A stretch of DNA of 64,000 bases from an uncultured Candidatus Saccharibacteria bacterium (GTDB lineage Bacteria; Patescibacteriota; Minisyncoccia; Phycocordibacterales; UBA2135): assembly GCA_964348495.1 (NCBI GenBank), contig CAYGCZ010000001.1:7951-71950 (forward strand). The letters are read 5' to 3'. Every line of letters starts with the position of its first letter. The first letter of the stretch is position 1. The translations under genes were made by a program, and so were the position numbers. Shown here piece after piece: positions 12,678-42,685 of the stretch. Below the pieces are notes generated by a model. It was not told the DNA's origin. It saw only the letters and a list, made by a program, of their open reading frames with translations, and did not search any database.

Positions 12678-13463
12678 ATGAGCGAAGAAGGTATAGAGGG
12701 TTATGACACAATCTCCATGTATGTCAATGAGATTCAAGGGAGTTTATTGTCAGCAGAGGAGGCGTCTCGTCTGGGCATCTTGGCATCAGCGGGCGACAAG
12801 GAAGCGCAGGATACGCTGGTGCAGGGGAATTTACGCCTCGTCATATGGATTGCAAAGAGGTGTAGAAACCGAGGCGTGGATCTTGCCGATCTCATTCAAG
12901 AAGGGAATCTGGGGTTGATGCGGGCTACGAAAACATTTGATCCCGAGAAAGGAATGTTCTCCACCTATGCCACATGGTGGATAAGGCAGGCCATGGATCG
13001 GGCAATCATGAACCAAGCGCGTACCATACGCGTACCGGTGAATCTGGCAAAACTGTTCAGAAAGAAAATTCCCCGCGGTTGTTCCTTGAGTGAAGACGAC
13101 AAAAAAAATATGTCTCTGTTTCTCGCAACAGAAACAGAATCGCTCGATACCACCCCTCGCGCCTTTGAGGGTACAAAAAAAGTGGGTGATATCTTGTTTG
13201 ACCATTCCCCCGGTCCCGCCGAATTGGCGGAGATGTCCATAGACCTTTCTCCGTATTTGGAAGTCCTCAAGCCCAAGCAGCGCGAGGTGATCGCCCGCAT
13301 TTATGGCCTGGATGGCCACCATGGTGATTCATTTCGTCAGGTAGGATTGAAAATGAAACTCAGTTGCGAAAGGATTCGTCAAATACACAGTATGGCGATA
13401 AAAAAAATAAGGAAAAGGATGAGAATTAAAGGTTGCGTGGCGGAGGATTTTTTCTCCGCCTAG
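12678..13463 (+). CDS. second sigma-70 family sigma factor lacking region 1.1
   Basis: 261 aa. Region 2 [36 protein letters not shown] and region 4 FRQVGLKMKLSCERIRQIHSMAIKKI. Local GC is lower than in rpoD. Confidence 0.8.
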   Translation: MSEEGIEGYDTISMYVNEIQGSLLSAEEASRLGILASAGDKEAQDTLVQGNLRLVIWIAKRCRNRGVDLADLIQEGNLGLMRATKTFDPEKGMFSTYATWWIRQAMDRAIMNQARTIRVPVNLAKLFRKKIPRGCSLSEDDKKNMSLFLATETESLDTTPRAFEGTKKVGDILFDHSPGPAELAEMSIDLSPYLEVLKPKQREVIARIYGLDGHHGDSFRQVGLKMKLSCERIRQIHSMAIKKIRKRMRIKGCVAEDFFSA

Positions 13464-13542
13464 CGATAAAACTCGGAGAGCCGCCGAACTTTGGCGGCTT
13501 TTTTAAAAAAATATCACCGATCCGTGCTATACTGCTCGCATC

Positions 13543-16500
13543 ATGAAAGAGGGGAAGTTCAACGTACTCTACCGCAAACTCAACGCCGAGCAAAAGGCGG
13601 CGGTGGATGCGATCGACGGGCCGGTGATGGTGATTGCCGGCCCGGGCACCGGCAAGACGCAGATACTCACCCTGCGTATCGCCAACATCTTGCGCACGAC
13701 CGACACCTCACCCGACTCCATCCTCGCCCTTACGTTCACCGAGGCCGCCGCCGCCAATATGAGAAAGCGCCTCGTCGCCACGATCGGCTCGGCGGGGTAT
13801 CAGGTGAACATCTCCACCTTCCACGGCTTTTGCAACAAGATCATCCAAGAGTATGCGGAGCGCTTCCCGCGCATCATTGGCTACAACAACGCCTCGCAGG
13901 TCGATCAGATCGACCTTATTCGCAGCGTTCTTGAATCACGCTCCTTTACCTACCTCAAACCCTTCGGCGATCACTTCTTTCACGTCTCCAATATCGTAGG
14001 CGGCATCCGCGATCTCAAAAAAGAAGGCATTTCGGTCGCGCATTTCAAAGAGATTATCGCGCAGGAAAAAGAGGCGCTTCTCGCGCGCGACGATCTCTAT
14101 CACACAAAAGGTGCGCATAAAGGCAAGATGAAGAGCGAGGCGCAAAAAGAACAAAAGATTCTTGAAAAAAACGAAGAGCTCGCGTATTTTTATGAGGTGT
14201 ATGAGCGCGAACTCGCCGAACGCAAACTCTACGACTTTGAAGACATGCTTCTTGCCGTTATCGGCGAACTTGAACACAACAAGGACTTTCTTTTGGAGCT
14301 CCAAGAAAAGTACCAGTATATTCTTGTTGATGAACACCAAGACACCAACGGTGCTCAAAATAAAATACTCGAACTTCTCGCGAGCTTTTTCCCCAACCCC
14401 AACCTCTTTGTCGTCGGCGATGAAAAACAGGCGATCTTTCGTTTTCAAGGCGCAAGTTTGGCAAACTTTTTGTATTTTAAGGACACCTTCCAAGGCGTGC
14501 GCCTCGTGAGTTTGGTGCACAACTACCGCAGTACGCAGTCCATCCTTGATGCCTCACAAAGTCTGATTGAGCACAACGCAATCAAGCCGCTCTCATCACC
14601 CTTGAGGGCGGCAGGGAAGGGGCCTGCCCGCCCCGCAAACGATAGCGTTGCGGGCGGGAGTCCGATCGATATCTACTCCTTCAACACCGAAGAAGGTGAA
14701 CGGCTTTTCATAACCGAACGTGTCGCCATGCTCATCGCCGAGGGGGTGCCAGCCGACGAGATCGCCGTTCTCTACCGCAACAACAGCGATGCGTTTCCAA
14801 TCGCCGAAGATCTTGAGCGCGCGGGTGTTCCTTTTGTCGTCGAATCCGACCGCGACATCTTGGGTGATGTCGATATTCGCAAGTTCAATACACTCATAAC
14901 GGCCATCGGCACCTTTGGCAACGACGAAGCACTCGTCAAGGCATTTCATATCGACTTTCTCGCCATCAATCCGCTCGTCGTCTATCGCGCGCTTGGTGCG
15001 GCAAAAGAAGCGCGCATGAGTTTGCATGCCTTTCTCGACATAGCCGCCGCGTCAAAAGGAAAGAAAAAAACAAAAGATCCGCTCGTCGCGCTCTATGGCA
15101 AGATACGTGCATGGAAAACACTGAGCCACAACACCGATTTTCTCAATTTCTTCACTACCGTCGCACGCGAATCCGGACTCATCAATCACCTTATCGCGCA
15201 TCCGCACCGTGTCGAAAAGTTGGACAAAATAGGCGCCCTCTACGATGAGATCGCGCATATCGTCGAGCACCACAGCGATTACTCGATTACCGAGTATCTC
15301 TACTACCTCGAAGTACTCGAACGTCATGGTGTGATGATCAAGGCGCGTTCTCGCCGCATGGGGAGTTCCGTGCGCCTCATGACGGCGCACAAGGCAAAAG
15401 GACTCGAGTTTGAACACGTCTTTGTTATCGGTGTCTACGATGGTCATTGGGGCAACAAACGCTCGATGGCGACCTTTCGCCTCCCGACGCGCATCAAAAC
15501 CATCGATACCGAGGGTGAGCGCAACGAAGACGAACGCCGACTTTTCTATATGGCGCTCACGCGCGCCAAGACGCATGTCATCGCCACCTACGCGCGTCAT
15601 GGCGCGGACGGCAAAGAGCGCGTGCCGAGCCAATTCGTGGGTGAGATACATGAGGAGCTTCGTGTTGAACACGACGGCGAAGAGTACGATGCTCGCGTCA
15701 AAAAAGAAGCGCGCTTCATGCCGCGCGCCGAGGGCGAAATCACCGATGTTGCCGCCTTTCTCAAAGAACGTTTCGTAGAGCAAGGCCTCTCACCCACGGC
15801 GCTCAACAACTATCTCACCTGTCCCTGGCGTTATTATTTCAACAGTTTGGTGCGTATTCCGCTCGCGCCCGGCTACCATCAGACGTACGGCATCATCATG
15901 CACAAGGTACTTGAAGAATTCTTCAACGCGCGCTCACCCTTGTATGTCGAAAAGCACGCCGACGCGCCAGGATCGGGGGAGGAGGCCGGTGCCGACTTTA
16001 TGGAAAAGCGTTTTATCTACCATCTCGATCGCCGCCCCATAAACGAGCGTCTCTATGAAGACCTCAAGAAAAAAGGTATCGAGACGTTGCGTGCTTATCA
16101 CGAGGCGGGACATCAAACGTGGAACTACAACACCGTCAACGAATACTATATCAAAGGTATTGAAGTCGGCGGGGTCAAGCTCACCGGTAAATTAGATAAG
16201 CTTGAGCTCGAACTCGATGGCGAGCACGTGCTCGTCGTAGACTACAAAACCAAAAAGCCGCAGAGCCGCAACTGGATAGAGGGTGCGACCGCCTCCGCCG
16301 ACGGCAACTTCAAGCGCCAGCTCGTCTTCTACAAACTCCTTTTGGACGAGATGCCGCATGGCAGGTATGTCATGCGCGCGGGCGCGATAGACTTTGTAGA
16401 ACCCGACGAAAAAGGCCGTTTCAAGCGCGAGGTTTTTGAGATAACCGACGAAGAAGTAATCGCTCTCAAAACCGAAATCGCCCGCGTCGCCGAGGAGATC

Positions 16501-16674: not shown

Positions 16675-16899
16675 ATGGCTTTTTCTTTTACGTCTAAAGA
16701 GTTGGCGGAAATGCCCTTTCCGCAGGAAAACAAAAAATGTCCCTGTGGTTGCGGGAAGCAACTCATGGGCGACAAAGAAGATCGTCAAGTAATGATGGTC
16801 GACGGAGTTCCACAGGAGGTGAACGCCGATTGCTACTATAAAGGATTAAGCGACCTGATCGACAAGAACCCTGTCGGTCTCCCGACAAAAAGCGAGTAA
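16675..16899 (+). CDS. small Cys-containing hypothetical protein (CPCGCGK motif)
   Basis: 74-aa ORF with an upstream gaggag RBS. No recognisable family. Confidence 0.35.
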   Translation: MAFSFTSKELAEMPFPQENKKCPCGCGKQLMGDKEDRQVMMVDGVPQEVNADCYYKGLSDLIDKNPVGLPTKSE

Positions 16900-17051
16900 C
16901 GCATCTTCCGCCCCCCGCGCCGGCGTTGGTTTCACTACCAACCCGGCGTTTTTGTTTATTTCCAACCACTCAATCACCCACCCATCCATCCATCCACCAA
17001 CATACTTACATACGCACTCACCTACTCACATATTCACATCCGTCACTCCGG

Positions 17052-17085
17052 AACCTAAAATGATGCACGTGCATCATTTTAGGTT
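17052..17085. repeat. perfect 34-bp palindrome aacctaaaatgatgcac|gtgcatcattttaggtt (palindrome family C, copy 1)
   Basis: Exact two-fold symmetry. It is flanked by a CA-rich arm (16962-17040) and a GT-rich arm (17107-17180). Confidence 0.95.
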
Positions 17086-17227
17086 ACCTTGATTTTTGAT
17101 ACGTAGTTGAGCGCGTGTGTATCGAGTGTGCATCGAGTGCGCGTGTGCGTGAGTGAGTATGTGTGGCATGAGAGGGGATTTGATGCTACGATAGACGCAC
17201 GTTTGTTCGGGGGCGAGCGGATGCATC

Positions 17228-17797
17228 ATGAAGATTCGCGATACCGAGATACCCCTTACTCAGATCGTCCTCGCCCTCGCGGCAGTCGGTGGGTTGTTGC
17301 TTATCGTTGCGGTCGTACCCAACGTCTCCCAAATTTTCAAACTCTTCGGCATTGGAAAAAGAAAAAAGAGCTATACTCCCAAGCAGTACAGCCGTGCCGT
17401 CAAATCATTGGAGCGGCAAGGGTATGTTGCCATTCGGCGTACCGGCCGCGACGAGCGGATTCATATTACGCCCGAAGGTCGTATGGCTTTCGAGCTGTAT
17501 AGGGCACGTCATCTCGACACCGCCCGCCCTAAAAAGTGGGATGGCAAATGGCGTGTGATTATTTTTGATATTGATCGAAAGCGGAGTTTTTTACGCAATA
17601 GGCTTCGTAATACGCTACAAGGTGTAGGTTTTGTGTATGTACAACATAGCGTATGGGCGTTTCCCTATCCTTGCGAATGGCTGGTGCAATTGATAAAAGT
17701 TGATTGCGAGGTGGGTACAGAAGTGCTCTTCCTTACCGTTGAAGCACTAGAAGGTGATGAACGACTACGTCAACATTTTCGTTTGCCACATAAATAA
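17228..17797 (+). CDS. PaaX-like protein: N-terminal TM helix, winged-helix domain and C-terminal Cas2-like (PaaX_C-type) domain
   Basis: TM segment IVLALAAVGGLLLIVAVV. wHTH YSRAVKSLERQGYVAIRRTGRDERIHITPEGR. WDGKWRVIIFDIDRKRSFLRNRLRNTLQGVGFVYVQHSVWAFPY resembles the Cas2/PaaX C-terminal core. Confidence 0.55.
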   Translation: MKIRDTEIPLTQIVLALAAVGGLLLIVAVVPNVSQIFKLFGIGKRKKSYTPKQYSRAVKSLERQGYVAIRRTGRDERIHITPEGRMAFELYRARHLDTARPKKWDGKWRVIIFDIDRKRSFLRNRLRNTLQGVGFVYVQHSVWAFPYPCEWLVQLIKVDCEVGTEVLFLTVEALEGDERLRQHFRLPHK

Positions 17798-17841
17798 CAC
17801 AGAACCTAAAATGATGCACGTGCATCATTTTAGGTTCTGTG
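17798..17841. repeat. perfect 44-bp palindrome (family C, copy 2; same core as 17052-17085, extended by cacag/ctgtg)
   Basis: cacagaacctaaaatgatgcac|gtgcatcattttaggttctgtg. It overlaps the stop codon of the PaaX-like gene. Confidence 0.95.
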
Positions 17842-17910
17842 GTTTTTGTTTTTTTGGTGAACGGTGTTTTGTCGGATAGTTTTTTTGATGGGCGGTATTT
17901 TTTTGACATT

Positions 17911-17935
17911 AAAAAACCTCCGGGGTTGCCGGAGG
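17911..17935 (-). terminator. terminator of the minus-strand CDF gene
   Basis: cctccgg/ccggagg stem preceded on the plus strand by aaaaaa, which is a T-tract on the minus strand. Confidence 0.5.
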
Positions 17936-17960: not shown

Positions 17961-18551
17961 TCATGCATGGTGGTGATCTGCCTCCTTTCCTTGGATGGTT
18001 GTGTAGGTTATCCAGAGGGTGAGTAGGATCATATATACCGAAATCCAGAATGATAGATATGCATCCCACTGTGCGCCACCGGCGTATACGATGATAGCCG
18101 AGGCGAGTACAGCAAATGAAATGAGGACATCGCACAGAAGGTGCGCGTTTACGATGGTCTTGAGCGATCCGCCGTGCATGGGATGAATTATAAGGAACTG
18201 TCCGGCATTTCCTCCCAAACCGATCAGTGCGCCCACGCTCATGAGCAGAGGGTCGACGGGTATCGATCCTGCGTCAATGCGGTGCATCGCCTCGGCGTTT
18301 ACACGCAGTGCGCCGTAGGCGAGGAGGAGTATGCCGGCAATCACGACGGCGCGCCGCAGGGATGCTTTGTTGAGGATCATTGCCGCGAAGGCACCTCCCG
18401 TAACGAGTATGTCGGTAGACATATGCCACGCGTCGCCGGCGAGGGCATTGCTGGCGGAGCAATGTACGAGGATCCATTGCATACAAAGCGCAAGAGATCC
18501 AATACCAAGTGCGAAACCATATCTTCGCGCATCGTGCGTATGAGTGTGCAT
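17961..18551 (-). CDS. cation diffusion facilitator (CDF) family transporter, membrane domain only
   Basis: HMSTDILVTGGAFAAMIL and HAEAM...D metal-site motifs, 5-6 TM segments and a His-rich end (DHHHA). At 196 aa it lacks the usual cytoplasmic C-terminal domain. Confidence 0.65.
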   Translation of the reverse strand: MHTHTHDARRYGFALGIGSLALCMQWILVHCSASNALAGDAWHMSTDILVTGGAFAAMILNKASLRRAVVIAGILLLAYGALRVNAEAMHRIDAGSIPVDPLLMSVGALIGLGGNAGQFLIIHPMHGGSLKTIVNAHLLCDVLISFAVLASAIIVYAGGAQWDAYLSFWISVYMILLTLWITYTTIQGKEADHHHA

Positions 18552-41649: not shown

Positions 41650-41683
41650 ACAAAAGCACGCGCCCTATGGGCGCGTGCTTTTG
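41650..41683 (+). terminator. intrinsic terminator
   Basis: acaaaagcacgcgccc-tat-gggcgcgtgcttttgt. Confidence 0.65.
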
Positions 41684-41698
41684 TGCTACCATGGCAGG

Positions 41699-42553
41699 AT
41701 GCGTGATCGGTATTTTGTGATACATAAGGAAGTGGGCGAGACGCCGCTTATGACGGTGGAGCGTTTGCGCGCGGAACGAGGTATCGCGCCCCACGTTAAA
41801 CTCGCCTACGCCGGCCGGCTTGACCCGATGGCGAGCGGGGCGTTGCTCGTACTTACGGGTGATGAATGCAAGCGGCAAAAGGCCTATCACGGCCTCGACA
41901 AAGAGTACGAGTTTGAAGTCCTGCTTGGCGTTTCATCGGACACGGGCGATGTATTGGGATTGGCAGAATACGATCAGATACAGGAACCTACAATCATGCA
42001 CGTGCATGATTGTAGGTTCCCTTTTTCTTCGCGTATGCTTATGAGTGCGGCGCGTTCGTTTCTTGGCACGCACACCTTTCCCTACCCCGCCTTTTCATCA
42101 AAGACCGTCGGCGGGGTGCAGTTGCACCGGCTTGCGGCGGAGGGGCGGTTGAACAAGGCGGAACTGCCCGTACGAGAGGCGACCGTCTATCGGTTGCGCC
42201 TCATTGGGGTGCATACGATCGGCAAGGACGCTCTGCATGCCGCCATCCTCAAAAAGATTGGTACCCTGCCGCAAGTAACCGATGAAGAAAAAGCATGGGG
42301 CAGGGACTTTCGCCGCGAAGAGATCATCGCGCGATGGCGCGATATCTTCGCGAAGATACCCGATGGCGCCTCGTTTCAGATCGCCCGTTTCTCGTGCATT
42401 TGTTCTTCCGGAACCTACATGCGCACCCTCGCCGAAAAGATCGCCGAGCATCTCTCGACGCGCGGCCTCGCCTTCTCCATCCACCGCACAAAGATCGGCC
42501 GCTACATCCCTGTTCTCAGTAAGTGGGGCGTATGGGTACGTCTCTATTGTTAG
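41699..42553 (+). CDS. truB: tRNA pseudouridine(55) synthase-like protein
   Basis: GRLDPMASG, KRQKAYHGLDKEYEFEVLLGVSSDTGD, CSSGTYMRTLAEKIAEHL. Contains the in-frame palindrome 41983..42020. Confidence 0.8.
   Translation: MRDRYFVIHKEVGETPLMTVERLRAERGIAPHVKLAYAGRLDPMASGALLVLTGDECKRQKAYHGLDKEYEFEVLLGVSSDTGDVLGLAEYDQIQEPTIMHVHDCRFPFSSRMLMSAARSFLGTHTFPYPAFSSKTVGGVQLHRLAAEGRLNKAELPVREATVYRLRLIGVHTIGKDALHAAILKKIGTLPQVTDEEKAWGRDFRREEIIARWRDIFAKIPDGASFQIARFSCICSSGTYMRTLAEKIAEHLSTRGLAFSIHRTKIGRYIPVLSKWGVWVRLYC
41983..42020. repeat. perfect 38-bp palindrome (family C variant) inside the truB coding sequence
   Basis: ggaacctacaatcatgcac|gtgcatgattgtaggttcc. It shares the atgcacgtgcat core and aacct/aggtt ends with 17052 and 17798. 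Confidence 0.9.
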
Positions 42554-42560
42554 TTGGGTT

Positions 42561-42623
42561 ATAGGAACTTTTTTAGGTAACTCGGCAAATCAGATTTGCC
42601 GAGTTACCTAAAAAAGTTCCTAT
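42561..42623. repeat. perfect 63-bp palindrome (30-bp arms, 3-nt centre)
   Basis: ataggaacttttttaggtaactcggcaaat-cag-atttgccgagttacctaaaaaagttcctat. The arms are an exact reverse complement. Confidence 0.95.
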
Positions 42624-42645
42624 ACTTCAATAATCCCCACACACC

Positions 42646-42685
42646 AAACAAAAAACAGCATCTCGCGATGCTGTTTTTTGTTTGC
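42646..42685. terminator. bidirectional terminator between truB and cspA
   Basis: caaacaaaaaacagcatc-tcgcga-gatgctgttttttgtttg. Confidence 0.7.

Follow-up and report, generated by a model that had tools for sequence, protein, structure and literature searches.

The 64,000-nucleotide stretch analyzed here (hereafter the window) is part of contig CAYGCZ010000001.1 (assembly GCA_964348495.1, positions 7,951 to 71,950) from an uncultured Candidatus Saccharibacteria bacterium. On its plus strand, at 17228-17797, lies a gene for a 189-residue PaaX-like protein bracketed by two copies of a palindrome, and it is this unit of site, gene and site that is described below. From left to right, the locus consists of a C/A-rich tract, the first palindrome (P1), a G/T-rich leader, the gene, the second palindrome (P2) and a T/G-rich tract. 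P1 (17052-17085, AACCTAAAATGATGCACGTGCATCATTTTAGGTT) is a perfect 34-bp palindrome with arms AACCTAAAATGATGCAC|GTGCATCATTTTAGGTT, exactly as stated in a preliminary description of the region, and it spans the positions 143-176 nt upstream of the gene, leaving 142 nt before the start codon. That description had missed the recurrence of the palindrome: three copies are present in the window, where none is expected by chance, and none of them is assigned a strand. P2 (17798-17841) starts at the first base past the stop codon and is a perfect palindrome of 44 bp, made of the same core, of 36 bp, plus CACA/TGTG and followed by GTTTTTGTTTTTTT. The palindrome centre is ATGCACGTGCAT, and the 24-nt core shared by P1 and P2 recurs at 17808-17831, in the centre of P2. 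The third copy (41983-42020, a perfect 38 bp, GGAACCTACAATCATGCAC|GTGCATGATTGTAGGTTCC) lies in frame inside truB, which occupies 41750-42553 as called in public record P0121, the longest open reading frame (ORF) beginning at 41675.

The protein encoded between P1 and P2 combines a winged helix and a Cas2-like PaaX_M domain with an N-terminus that is hydrophobic. It matched the Pfam family PF20803 (PaaX_M, Cas2-like) above the cut-off (E 8.4e-16) and gave several winged-helix matches. The NCBIfam matches to PaaX and Cas2 were both below the cut-off, the PaaX equivalog TIGR02277 scoring 34.6 bits, where the cut-off is 264.55, over positions 40-138 of the 279 in the profile. An AlphaFold model built from 32 family sequences (predicted local distance difference test, pLDDT, of 80.5) was compared with the PDB using Foldseek. 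The top match was Escherichia coli PaaX (8a39, E 1.9e-7, TMq 0.58), followed by the PaaX-like structure 3l09, then by MarR/PadR-type winged helices and Cas2 proteins. E. coli PaaX was the best match by both family and structure, and in both proteins a Cas2-like dimerisation domain comes after the N-terminal winged helix. E. coli PaaX is longer, however, with about 305-316 residues, and carries a C-terminal helical domain that binds the effector phenylacetyl-CoA, whereas the protein studied here has no such domain and ends approximately 85 residues past the start of its Cas2-like domain. Conversely, its residues 13-31 are strongly hydrophobic (Kyte-Doolittle maximum of 2.83), forming an N-terminal segment that is absent from E. 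coli PaaX. Based on the predicted structure, the protein is a truncated PaaX with putative DNA-binding and dimerisation domains, without the C-terminal effector domain and with an added membrane-type anchor. No paa genes were found near the locus in the window, and no HUH/Y1, DDE or recombinase signature was detected in the protein by Pfam, NCBIfam or fold searches.

At E <= 1e-30, a profile search of 1.84 billion cluster representatives returned 1,271 sequences (counted in a library clustered at 50% identity); at E <= 1e-10 the number was 3,775. The matching proteins typically have 180-200 residues. All the homologues with a named source came from metagenome-assembled genomes of Patescibacteria/Paceibacterota. 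No family member was found in viral contigs, phage records or plasmids, save one weak match in Streptomyces. This large and uncharacterised Patescibacteria protein family has the bracket architecture in every gene examined, and both the cassette and the palindrome show signs of portability.

Matching inverted repeats of 30-48 bp were present both upstream and downstream of 16 out of 16 family genes examined. These genes are located on 13 contigs: the window, six metagenome loci with palindrome pairs, and the protein-retrieved L061, L063, L065 and L067-L072. The metagenome loci were obtained by scanning with the core AATNATGCACGTGCATNATT, which revealed many copies of ATCACAAAATTATGCAC|GTGCATAATTTTGTGAT and its variants. 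On seven contigs, the palindrome copies were paired 755-822 bp apart, and in six of them the gene in between codes for a protein homologous to that of the window (approximately 30-33% identity). On the seventh (L050), the pair surrounds a PIN-domain (VapC-like) gene together with a small upstream ORF; the two ATCACAAAATTATGCAC|GTGCATAATTTTGTGAT palindromes (L050:486-521 and 1309-1342) share 15 nt more on one side, making them direct repeats of about 50 nt. Because the metagenome pair loci had been ascertained through the core sequence, further loci were retrieved by protein alone, with genes in L061, L063, L065 (two), L067, L068, L069, L070, L071 (three) and L072. Every one of these genes was bracketed, and the repeats were unrelated in sequence to those of the window: TGCATAATAAGGTAACG-AC-CGTTACCTTATTATGCA in L063, AATTACGAAATTTACGCG-AC-CGCGTAAATTTCGTAATT in L065, ATACATAATAACAATGCTA|TAGCATTGTTATTATGTAT in L068 and TACGTTATA-N20-TATAACGTA in L071. 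The repeat sequence varies between lineages as well as between paralogues, since each of the three L071 paralogues (63-65% identical) has its own variant.

The bracket is specific to the family. For 182 other ORFs of at least 100 residues from the same loci, the score of the upstream/downstream match was 9.2 +/- 1.6 with a maximum of 17, so that a score of 18 was reached by none. With flanks of 150 nt, 13 family genes were scored, ten of which had values of 20 to 48. The window gene scored 8.5 with these flanks because of the distance to P1 given above, and 36 when the flanks were extended to 260 nt. Scanning 185,579 species genomes, a set that does not include the source genome or its close relatives, with the 20-mer core yielded eight chance matches, all without the flanking arms. 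We found no description of this site-gene-site arrangement in a literature search, for which most papers in subscription journals were outside the scope. At L061:9987-10026, the called start codon of the family protein P0002 falls within the upstream inverted repeat; its real start is probably further downstream, and overlong 5' ends may be frequent among the gene calls of this family.

To describe the sites themselves, we aligned 26 of them on their centres (the pairs of 13 of the 16 genes, from 10 contigs) and calculated self-complementarity by distance from the centre. It was 0.85-1.00 at positions 1-5, 0.65-0.73 at positions 6-9, 0.85-0.96 at positions 10-17, and 0.38 or less beyond position 19. 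These values describe a duplex site in which a central core is accompanied by two outer half-sites approximately 28 bp apart, over a span of 36-38 bp. A binding site in duplex DNA is a better explanation than a hairpin because a hairpin leaves its central 3-4 nt free, whereas these sites are most symmetric at their centre. For comparison, E. coli PaaX has the operator TGATTC-N27-GAATCA, in which 27 bp separate two inverted half-sites of 6 bp (39 bp in total), and the protein blocks RNA polymerase at Px, thereby repressing its own promoter (review PMC9493321). The sites described here, of 34-44 bp with outer half-sites about 28-30 bp apart, have a matching geometry, with some three helical turns between inverted half-sites that are located at the presumed promoter of the regulator. 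They differ from the PaaX operator in that the entire site is self-complementary and not the half-sites alone, and in that a second copy is always found past the stop codon. TTHA0973/PaaR was also considered for comparison and set aside, being a TetR-type functional analogue of PaaX and not a homologue.

The position of the upstream repeat is also of the kind expected for an operator. In most loci it lies 0-40 nt from the start codon, and it abuts the ATG in L069 and in the three L071 genes (L071a-c). The left arm of this repeat contains a -10-like hexamer both in L063 and in the window. In the window this hexamer belongs to a candidate promoter on the plus strand (TTCACA-17 nt-TAAAAT, 17033-17061; 10 of 12 consensus matches), which is a candidate only, as the promoter scan of the window was not enriched overall over shuffled sequences. 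At four other loci, the upstream repeats were likewise scanned for sigma-70 promoters, with no enrichment over shuffles, and the argument for an overlap with the promoter therefore relies mainly on how far the repeat lies from the start codon. The candidate promoter at P1 has a mirror counterpart at P2, whose left arm contains the -10 hexamer of a second promoter-like site (TTGCCA-18 nt-TAAAAT, 17783-17812, also 10 of 12 matches). This second site faces the T/G-rich tract and a convergent cation-efflux gene (17961-18551, minus strand).

Taken together, the site sequences and the relationship to PaaX lead us to favor, with guarded confidence, the interpretation that P1 and P2 are the cognate DNA-binding sites of the enclosed protein. 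In the mechanism we propose, a protein dimer would contact the outer half-sites GAACCT / AGGTTC, whose centres are about 30 bp apart. P1 would be the upstream operator: as it overlaps the candidate -10 element, binding would shut off the gene's own promoter, as E. coli PaaX is reported to do at Px. P2, when transcribed, would act as the terminator of the gene, being placed directly past the stop codon and followed by a T-run, and it may also be a second operator or an insulator. Read as RNA, P2 forms a stable hairpin (-34.2 kcal/mol, z = -8.5) followed by U-runs at the end of the gene, which is what an intrinsic terminator looks like; the P1 hairpin (-24 kcal/mol) is weaker in this respect, with its T-run 7 nt past the stem. 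Relative to each other, the two sites are inverted in six cases and direct in four, these being the L069/L071 clade; for the remaining cases no orientation is defined. This variability argues against a role in recombination and fits a binder that is itself symmetric.

Copies of the palindrome that are not paired around a gene are also informative. In two of three such solo copies (copy 3 of the window and L068:701-738) the outer arm was kept and inner positions were changed; in the third, inside murD of L067, the outermost 6 nt and the central GCG-AC-CGC were kept. This murD copy (L067:4846-4885) is a 40-bp palindrome, TTACTTGAATTTTTAAGCG-AC-CGCTTAAAAATTCAAGTAA, related to the repeats flanking the PaaX_M gene of L067. 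It encodes LLEFLSDRLKIQV and corresponds to no length insertion when compared with the solved MurD 3lk7. Copy 3 of the window differs from P1 and P2 at two arm positions, each change being mirrored in the opposite arm. It encodes ..EPTIMHVHDCRFP.. and coincides with an 11-residue insertion in TruB (IMHVHDCRFPF, 41993-42025) that is missing from 13 of 14 homologues in an alignment (48-56% identity). The peptide is also an insertion relative to Thermotoga maritima TruB. P0241 was rejected as an insertion-free TruB because it is the identical sequence with another start codon. The canonical palindrome has a single stop-free frame, M-H-V-H, in which copy 3 is read, and in L052 a related palindrome lies in the same frame within a glycosyltransferase ORF. 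The truB copy (window 41975-42030) is followed by CCCTTTTTCTTC and folds at -30.3 kcal/mol as RNA, giving it the look of an intrinsic terminator inside a coding region. A T5 run is found within 14 nt downstream, on the plus strand, of all three window copies.

Several observations weigh against the operator interpretation. Recognition, binding and autorepression are all deduced from architecture and homology. Simple autoregulation needs one operator only, and yet the second copy past the stop codon is invariable. The inner 24 bp of the site are also self-complementary, perfectly so in the window, for which a model of PaaX-type half-sites has no need. The mirrored changes in copy 3 fit the maintenance of a hairpin or palindrome, or descent from another symmetric master copy, better than they fit the drift of a binding site. 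Unlike ordinary operators, the palindrome has been copied to new places, as the truB insertion and the L052 glycosyltransferase copy indicate, and the same palindrome pair surrounds the PIN-domain gene of L050. Furthermore, the promoter scans showed no enrichment over shuffles, and the 142 nt that separate P1 from the start codon in the window far exceed the spacing in most relatives. As for the downstream copy, repeats of the L013 type have no T-run.

The unit itself also shows signs of moving. L069 and L071 are syntenic, and in L071 additional cassettes separate pgk from the HIT gene and rpsG from fusA. The corresponding sites of L069 show an overlap of pgk with the HIT gene and a gap of 38 nt from rpsG to fusA. 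Being present or absent at syntenic positions, the site-gene-site unit behaves as a portable cassette. The str operon of L071 carries small modules (L071:16623-17197 and 13008-13993) that are absent from the syntenic L069: the PaaX_M cassette and a gene for 91 residues in the rpsG-fusA gap, and a HigB-like toxin gene and a gene for 68 residues in the fusA-tuf gap. Under the operator interpretation, the unit would be a conserved, self-contained cassette placed at varied positions in Patescibacteria genomes, with palindrome copies occasionally landing elsewhere, including in truB. More tentatively, and as a possibility to which we give distinctly less credence than to the binding sites themselves, the membrane-anchored mini-PaaX gene and its own palindromic sites of about 38 bp may constitute an undescribed type of portable, self-regulating cassette. 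Such a cassette would insert between or within conserved operons, its palindromes would seed copies, among them in-frame ones in essential genes, and capture cargo such as toxin-antitoxin genes, and the repressor-type protein would be its sole dedicated factor.

Patescibacteria (the candidate phyla radiation) have tiny genomes with few recognisable regulators. As each of the 16 family genes examined carries its own candidate binding sites, the family offers a testable protein-DNA pair for uncultured organisms, and the flanking sites are a way to read the targets of each paralogue from sequence alone. The cassette inside the rpsG-fusA operon and the in-frame palindrome of truB also suggest a way in which streamlined genomes are reshaped by small modules, be they regulatory or selfish.

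Some of these observations would also be expected if the palindromes were selfish hairpins and the enclosed protein mobilised or controlled them, as RAYT proteins do for REP/REPIN sequences or in the manner of MITEs (miniature transposable elements with inverted repeats). In favor of such an element are copy 3 at the in-frame 11-residue insertion of truB, the L052 glycosyltransferase copy in the same stop-free M-H-V-H frame, the solo copies between genes in several metagenome contigs as well as L068:701-738 with its mirrored changes, the presence or absence of the gene-plus-repeats unit at syntenic sites (L071 versus L069), and the L050 pair that encloses a PIN-domain gene. In-frame insertion is a hallmark of Rickettsia palindromic elements (RPEs), which, like intragenic MITEs, are palindromic repeats in frame in housekeeping genes that add a short peptide in a variable loop (PMC10969869). 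Insertion polymorphism and in-frame insertion into coding genes are both found here, the former in TruB (insertion absent from 13 of 14 homologues) and the latter also in the L052 copy. RPEs, however, are approximately 100-150 bp long and MITEs about 50-500 bp, whereas the element described here totals 34-44 bp, has one intragenic copy in the window and is tied to the gene of a DNA-binding protein. No target-site duplication was definable, there being no close insertion-free DNA relative.

The resemblance to REPtrons (a RAYT gene with its REP/REPIN sequences) is that a small gene is flanked on both sides by a palindromic repeat also found elsewhere, and that the repeat is specific to the gene copy. 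In contrast to REPtrons, the protein is not an HUH/Y1 (IS200-like) transposase, having no Pfam or NCBIfam match to one and a PaaX-like fold; a few copies were seen per tens of kilobases, against tens to hundreds per genome; and the centre of the repeat is symmetric and not a loop. IS200/IS605 elements similarly comprise a unit of approximately 0.7 kb with one small gene between hairpin-forming ends, with an upstream hairpin placed so that it could block read-in and overlapping the expression signals of the gene. Here, neither TnpA nor a conserved target motif was found, and the paralogues are old (57-65% identical) when compared with the near-identical copies of such elements. A mobile palindrome with a handling protein thus ranks second to the operator interpretation, and we regard it as unlikely, because the protein has a repressor-like fold without a transposase or recombinase signature (HUH/Y1 and DDE included), because the copy number is low in the sequence covered, because the paralogues are old and because nothing was found in the phage, viral and plasmid collections apart from the weak Streptomyces match. 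The 64 kb of the window contain three copies, loci of 20 kb elsewhere have no more than one solo copy each, and a single matching locus was obtained from each of two contigs of 111 kb and 120 kb; the 63-65% identity of the L071 paralogues indicates no recent burst. The symmetry of the site centre, unlike that of a hairpin loop, also speaks against it.

A simpler possibility is that the palindromes are plain terminators or insulators, that is, RNA hairpins which stop transcription at both borders of the gene and are not recognised by any specific protein. The hairpin of P2 with its U-runs and the T5 runs near P1 and copy 3 are compatible with this. So are the T-tails on the inner side of the repeats in L065a, L068 and P1, where they would block read-in from outside. 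The hairpin at the left end of IS200 blocks read-in in a similar way. However, the stems are AT-rich (35% G+C) in a window of 53% G+C in which the evident terminators have G+C-rich stems and 3-nt loops, and L013-type repeats lack a T-run. A terminator has no need for identical flanks, for a sequence specific to each paralogue or for a perfectly symmetric centre, and one copy lies within the coding region of the essential gene truB. As a full account of the repeats we therefore consider termination improbable.

A pair of crossover sites for the inversion or excision of the enclosed gene, as in hix/hin or the pdif modules of Acinetobacter plasmids, would likewise be short, nearly palindromic and arranged around a small module. 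The segment enclosed by the sites of the Hin system codes for a protein of about 190 residues that binds them. The locus has a bracketed segment of approximately 0.7 kb coding for a predicted DNA-binding protein of about that size. In L061, L063, L065a, L065b and L067, the palindromes are perfect save for an asymmetric central dinucleotide (AC/GT or CC/GG), which is inverted between the two copies, and in L050 the copies with their additional 15 nt on one side form direct repeats around the PIN-domain gene. Unlike in the Hin/hix and pdif systems, no serine or tyrosine recombinase domain was recognised in the protein, and site orientation was not conserved (six inverted, four direct, the rest undefined). 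The related contigs also showed no inversion polymorphism, L013, L015, L021, L045 and L057 all having the same gene orientation relative to their flanks. With neither a recombinase nor a fixed site orientation, an invertible or excisable segment is very improbable.

The tracts around P1 had been proposed in the preliminary description to be arms of approximately reverse-complementary sequence that, with the palindrome, could extrude as a cruciform of about 220 bp. Their composition is indeed unusual. The left tract (16961-17045, plus strand) is a C/A-rich, nearly G-free sequence of low complexity, and the 70-nt window starting at 16961 has the highest C+A content of the 64 kb (56 of 70, with one G); windows with at most 5 G in 70 extend over 16929-17064. 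It is a decayed repeat with a period of 4 or 8 nt (CCAC/CCAT/ACAT/ACTC), in which Tandem Repeats Finder (TRF) identified period-8 arrays at 16978-16998 and 17016-17039. The G/T-rich tract between P1 and the start codon (17100-17180, plus strand) is less extreme (49 of 70 at 17100) and contains an 11-nt period repeat, GTGTGCATCGA, detected by TRF. It is probably the 5' leader of the gene, and the spacer from P1 to the start codon has a (C-G)/(C+G) of -0.41. Rfam searches of the leader with gathering and permissive thresholds returned no family, only sub-threshold matches to generic hairpins. The most G+T-rich stretch of the window is the T/G-rich, C-poor tract to the right of P2 (17842-17917, plus strand), with G+T of at least 58 of 70 over 17825-17910, a maximum of 60 of 70 at 17833, and C of at most 5 of 70 over 17820-17917.

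The pairing of the two arms did not hold up. The best ungapped inverted repeat between them was 28 nt long at 75% identity, and the minimum free energy of 16962-17180 as DNA (-37.5 kcal/mol) was no better than that of composition-matched shuffles in which the palindrome was kept. Arm-wise dinucleotide shuffles gave -35.7 +/- 3.3 kcal/mol (142 of 500 folding as well, z = -0.55) and 4-mer block shuffles gave -35.7 +/- 3.6 kcal/mol (92 of 300, z = -0.51). A plain shuffle of the whole 221-nt region gave z = -3.7; it was discarded as a test of the arms because this null destroys the palindrome and mixes two compositions, and the value is due to the palindrome and to arm composition. Gapped local alignment of the left arm with the reverse complement of the right one scored 17 against 10.9 +/- 1.9 for shuffles, marginally above them, a score reached by 6 of 1000 dinucleotide, 19 of 1000 4-mer block and 40 of 1000 8-mer block shuffles. 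Decayed 4-nt-period repeats of complementary motifs may suffice for this similarity, without common descent. Neither arm recurs in the window or in any fetched locus, and arms that pair no better than shuffles and occur nowhere else were the very outcome that the preliminary description had named as its refutation.

The tracts would thus be strand-skewed low-complexity spacers beside the sites and not pairing arms. Read as RNA toward P1 from either direction, they present a G-poor unstructured run, a hairpin and a G/U-rich run. One may speculate that this suits an insulator or a Rho loading site; equally, the tracts may be slippage-prone filler. Skewed flanks were rejected as a trait of the family, since the pattern (C>G to the left of the cassette, G>C to the right) is found in some relatives only: eight loci have it, four go against it and one is neutral, which is not significant. 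It is present in the window, L013, L057, L063 and L065b and less marked in L068 and L070; L065a, L067, L069 and L071a-c lack it or show its reverse.

The preliminary description had also seen in the strand asymmetry a hint of recombination, replication or transposon ends. In its favor, a palindrome pair does bracket a small gene and the unit is present or absent at syntenic positions. On the other hand, the enclosed protein is PaaX-like with no recognisable transposase or recombinase, and a replication origin found no support. The GC skew changes sign near 17 kb without persisting, the cumulative skew has a shallow minimum near 15-17 kb, neither a dnaA gene nor a cluster of DnaA boxes was found at the locus, and genes on both sides of it are co-directional on the plus strand. 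A cruciform of approximately 220 bp at a replication origin or recombination hotspot, formed by the palindrome and complementary arms, is therefore largely refuted and we reject it as scarcely credible, in spite of tracts that are compositionally complementary, extreme for the window and marginally collinear, since the arms add no folding energy, have no other copy and lie in a skew pattern shared with some relatives only. DnaA-box-like 9-mers (TTATCCACA, at most one mismatch) are in excess in the window, with 26 against 10.2 +/- 3.0 in shuffles; they are spread and unclustered, and codon or composition effects are a possible cause.

Some other features were noted as well. A tRNA scan gave no tRNA gene. 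To the left of the C/A-rich tract, as read directly from the sequence, a hairpin with a T-run resembling an intrinsic terminator (CGCCGGCGTTGG...CCAACCCGGCG, 16918-16964, plus strand) ends the upstream ORF of 74 residues (16675-16899) and forms the left edge of the intergenic region; its bulged stem left it unlisted by the terminator scan. Directly 3' of the truB stop codon is a perfect palindrome of 65 bp (42560-42624, with 32-nt arms and a 1-nt centre, TATAGGAACTTTTTTAGGTAACTCGGCAAATC-G-...). Its stem is AT-rich and not terminator-like, and it may be another protein-binding palindrome. It is followed, before a convergent gene for 67 residues, by a classical G+C-rich bidirectional terminator at approximately 42647-42685.

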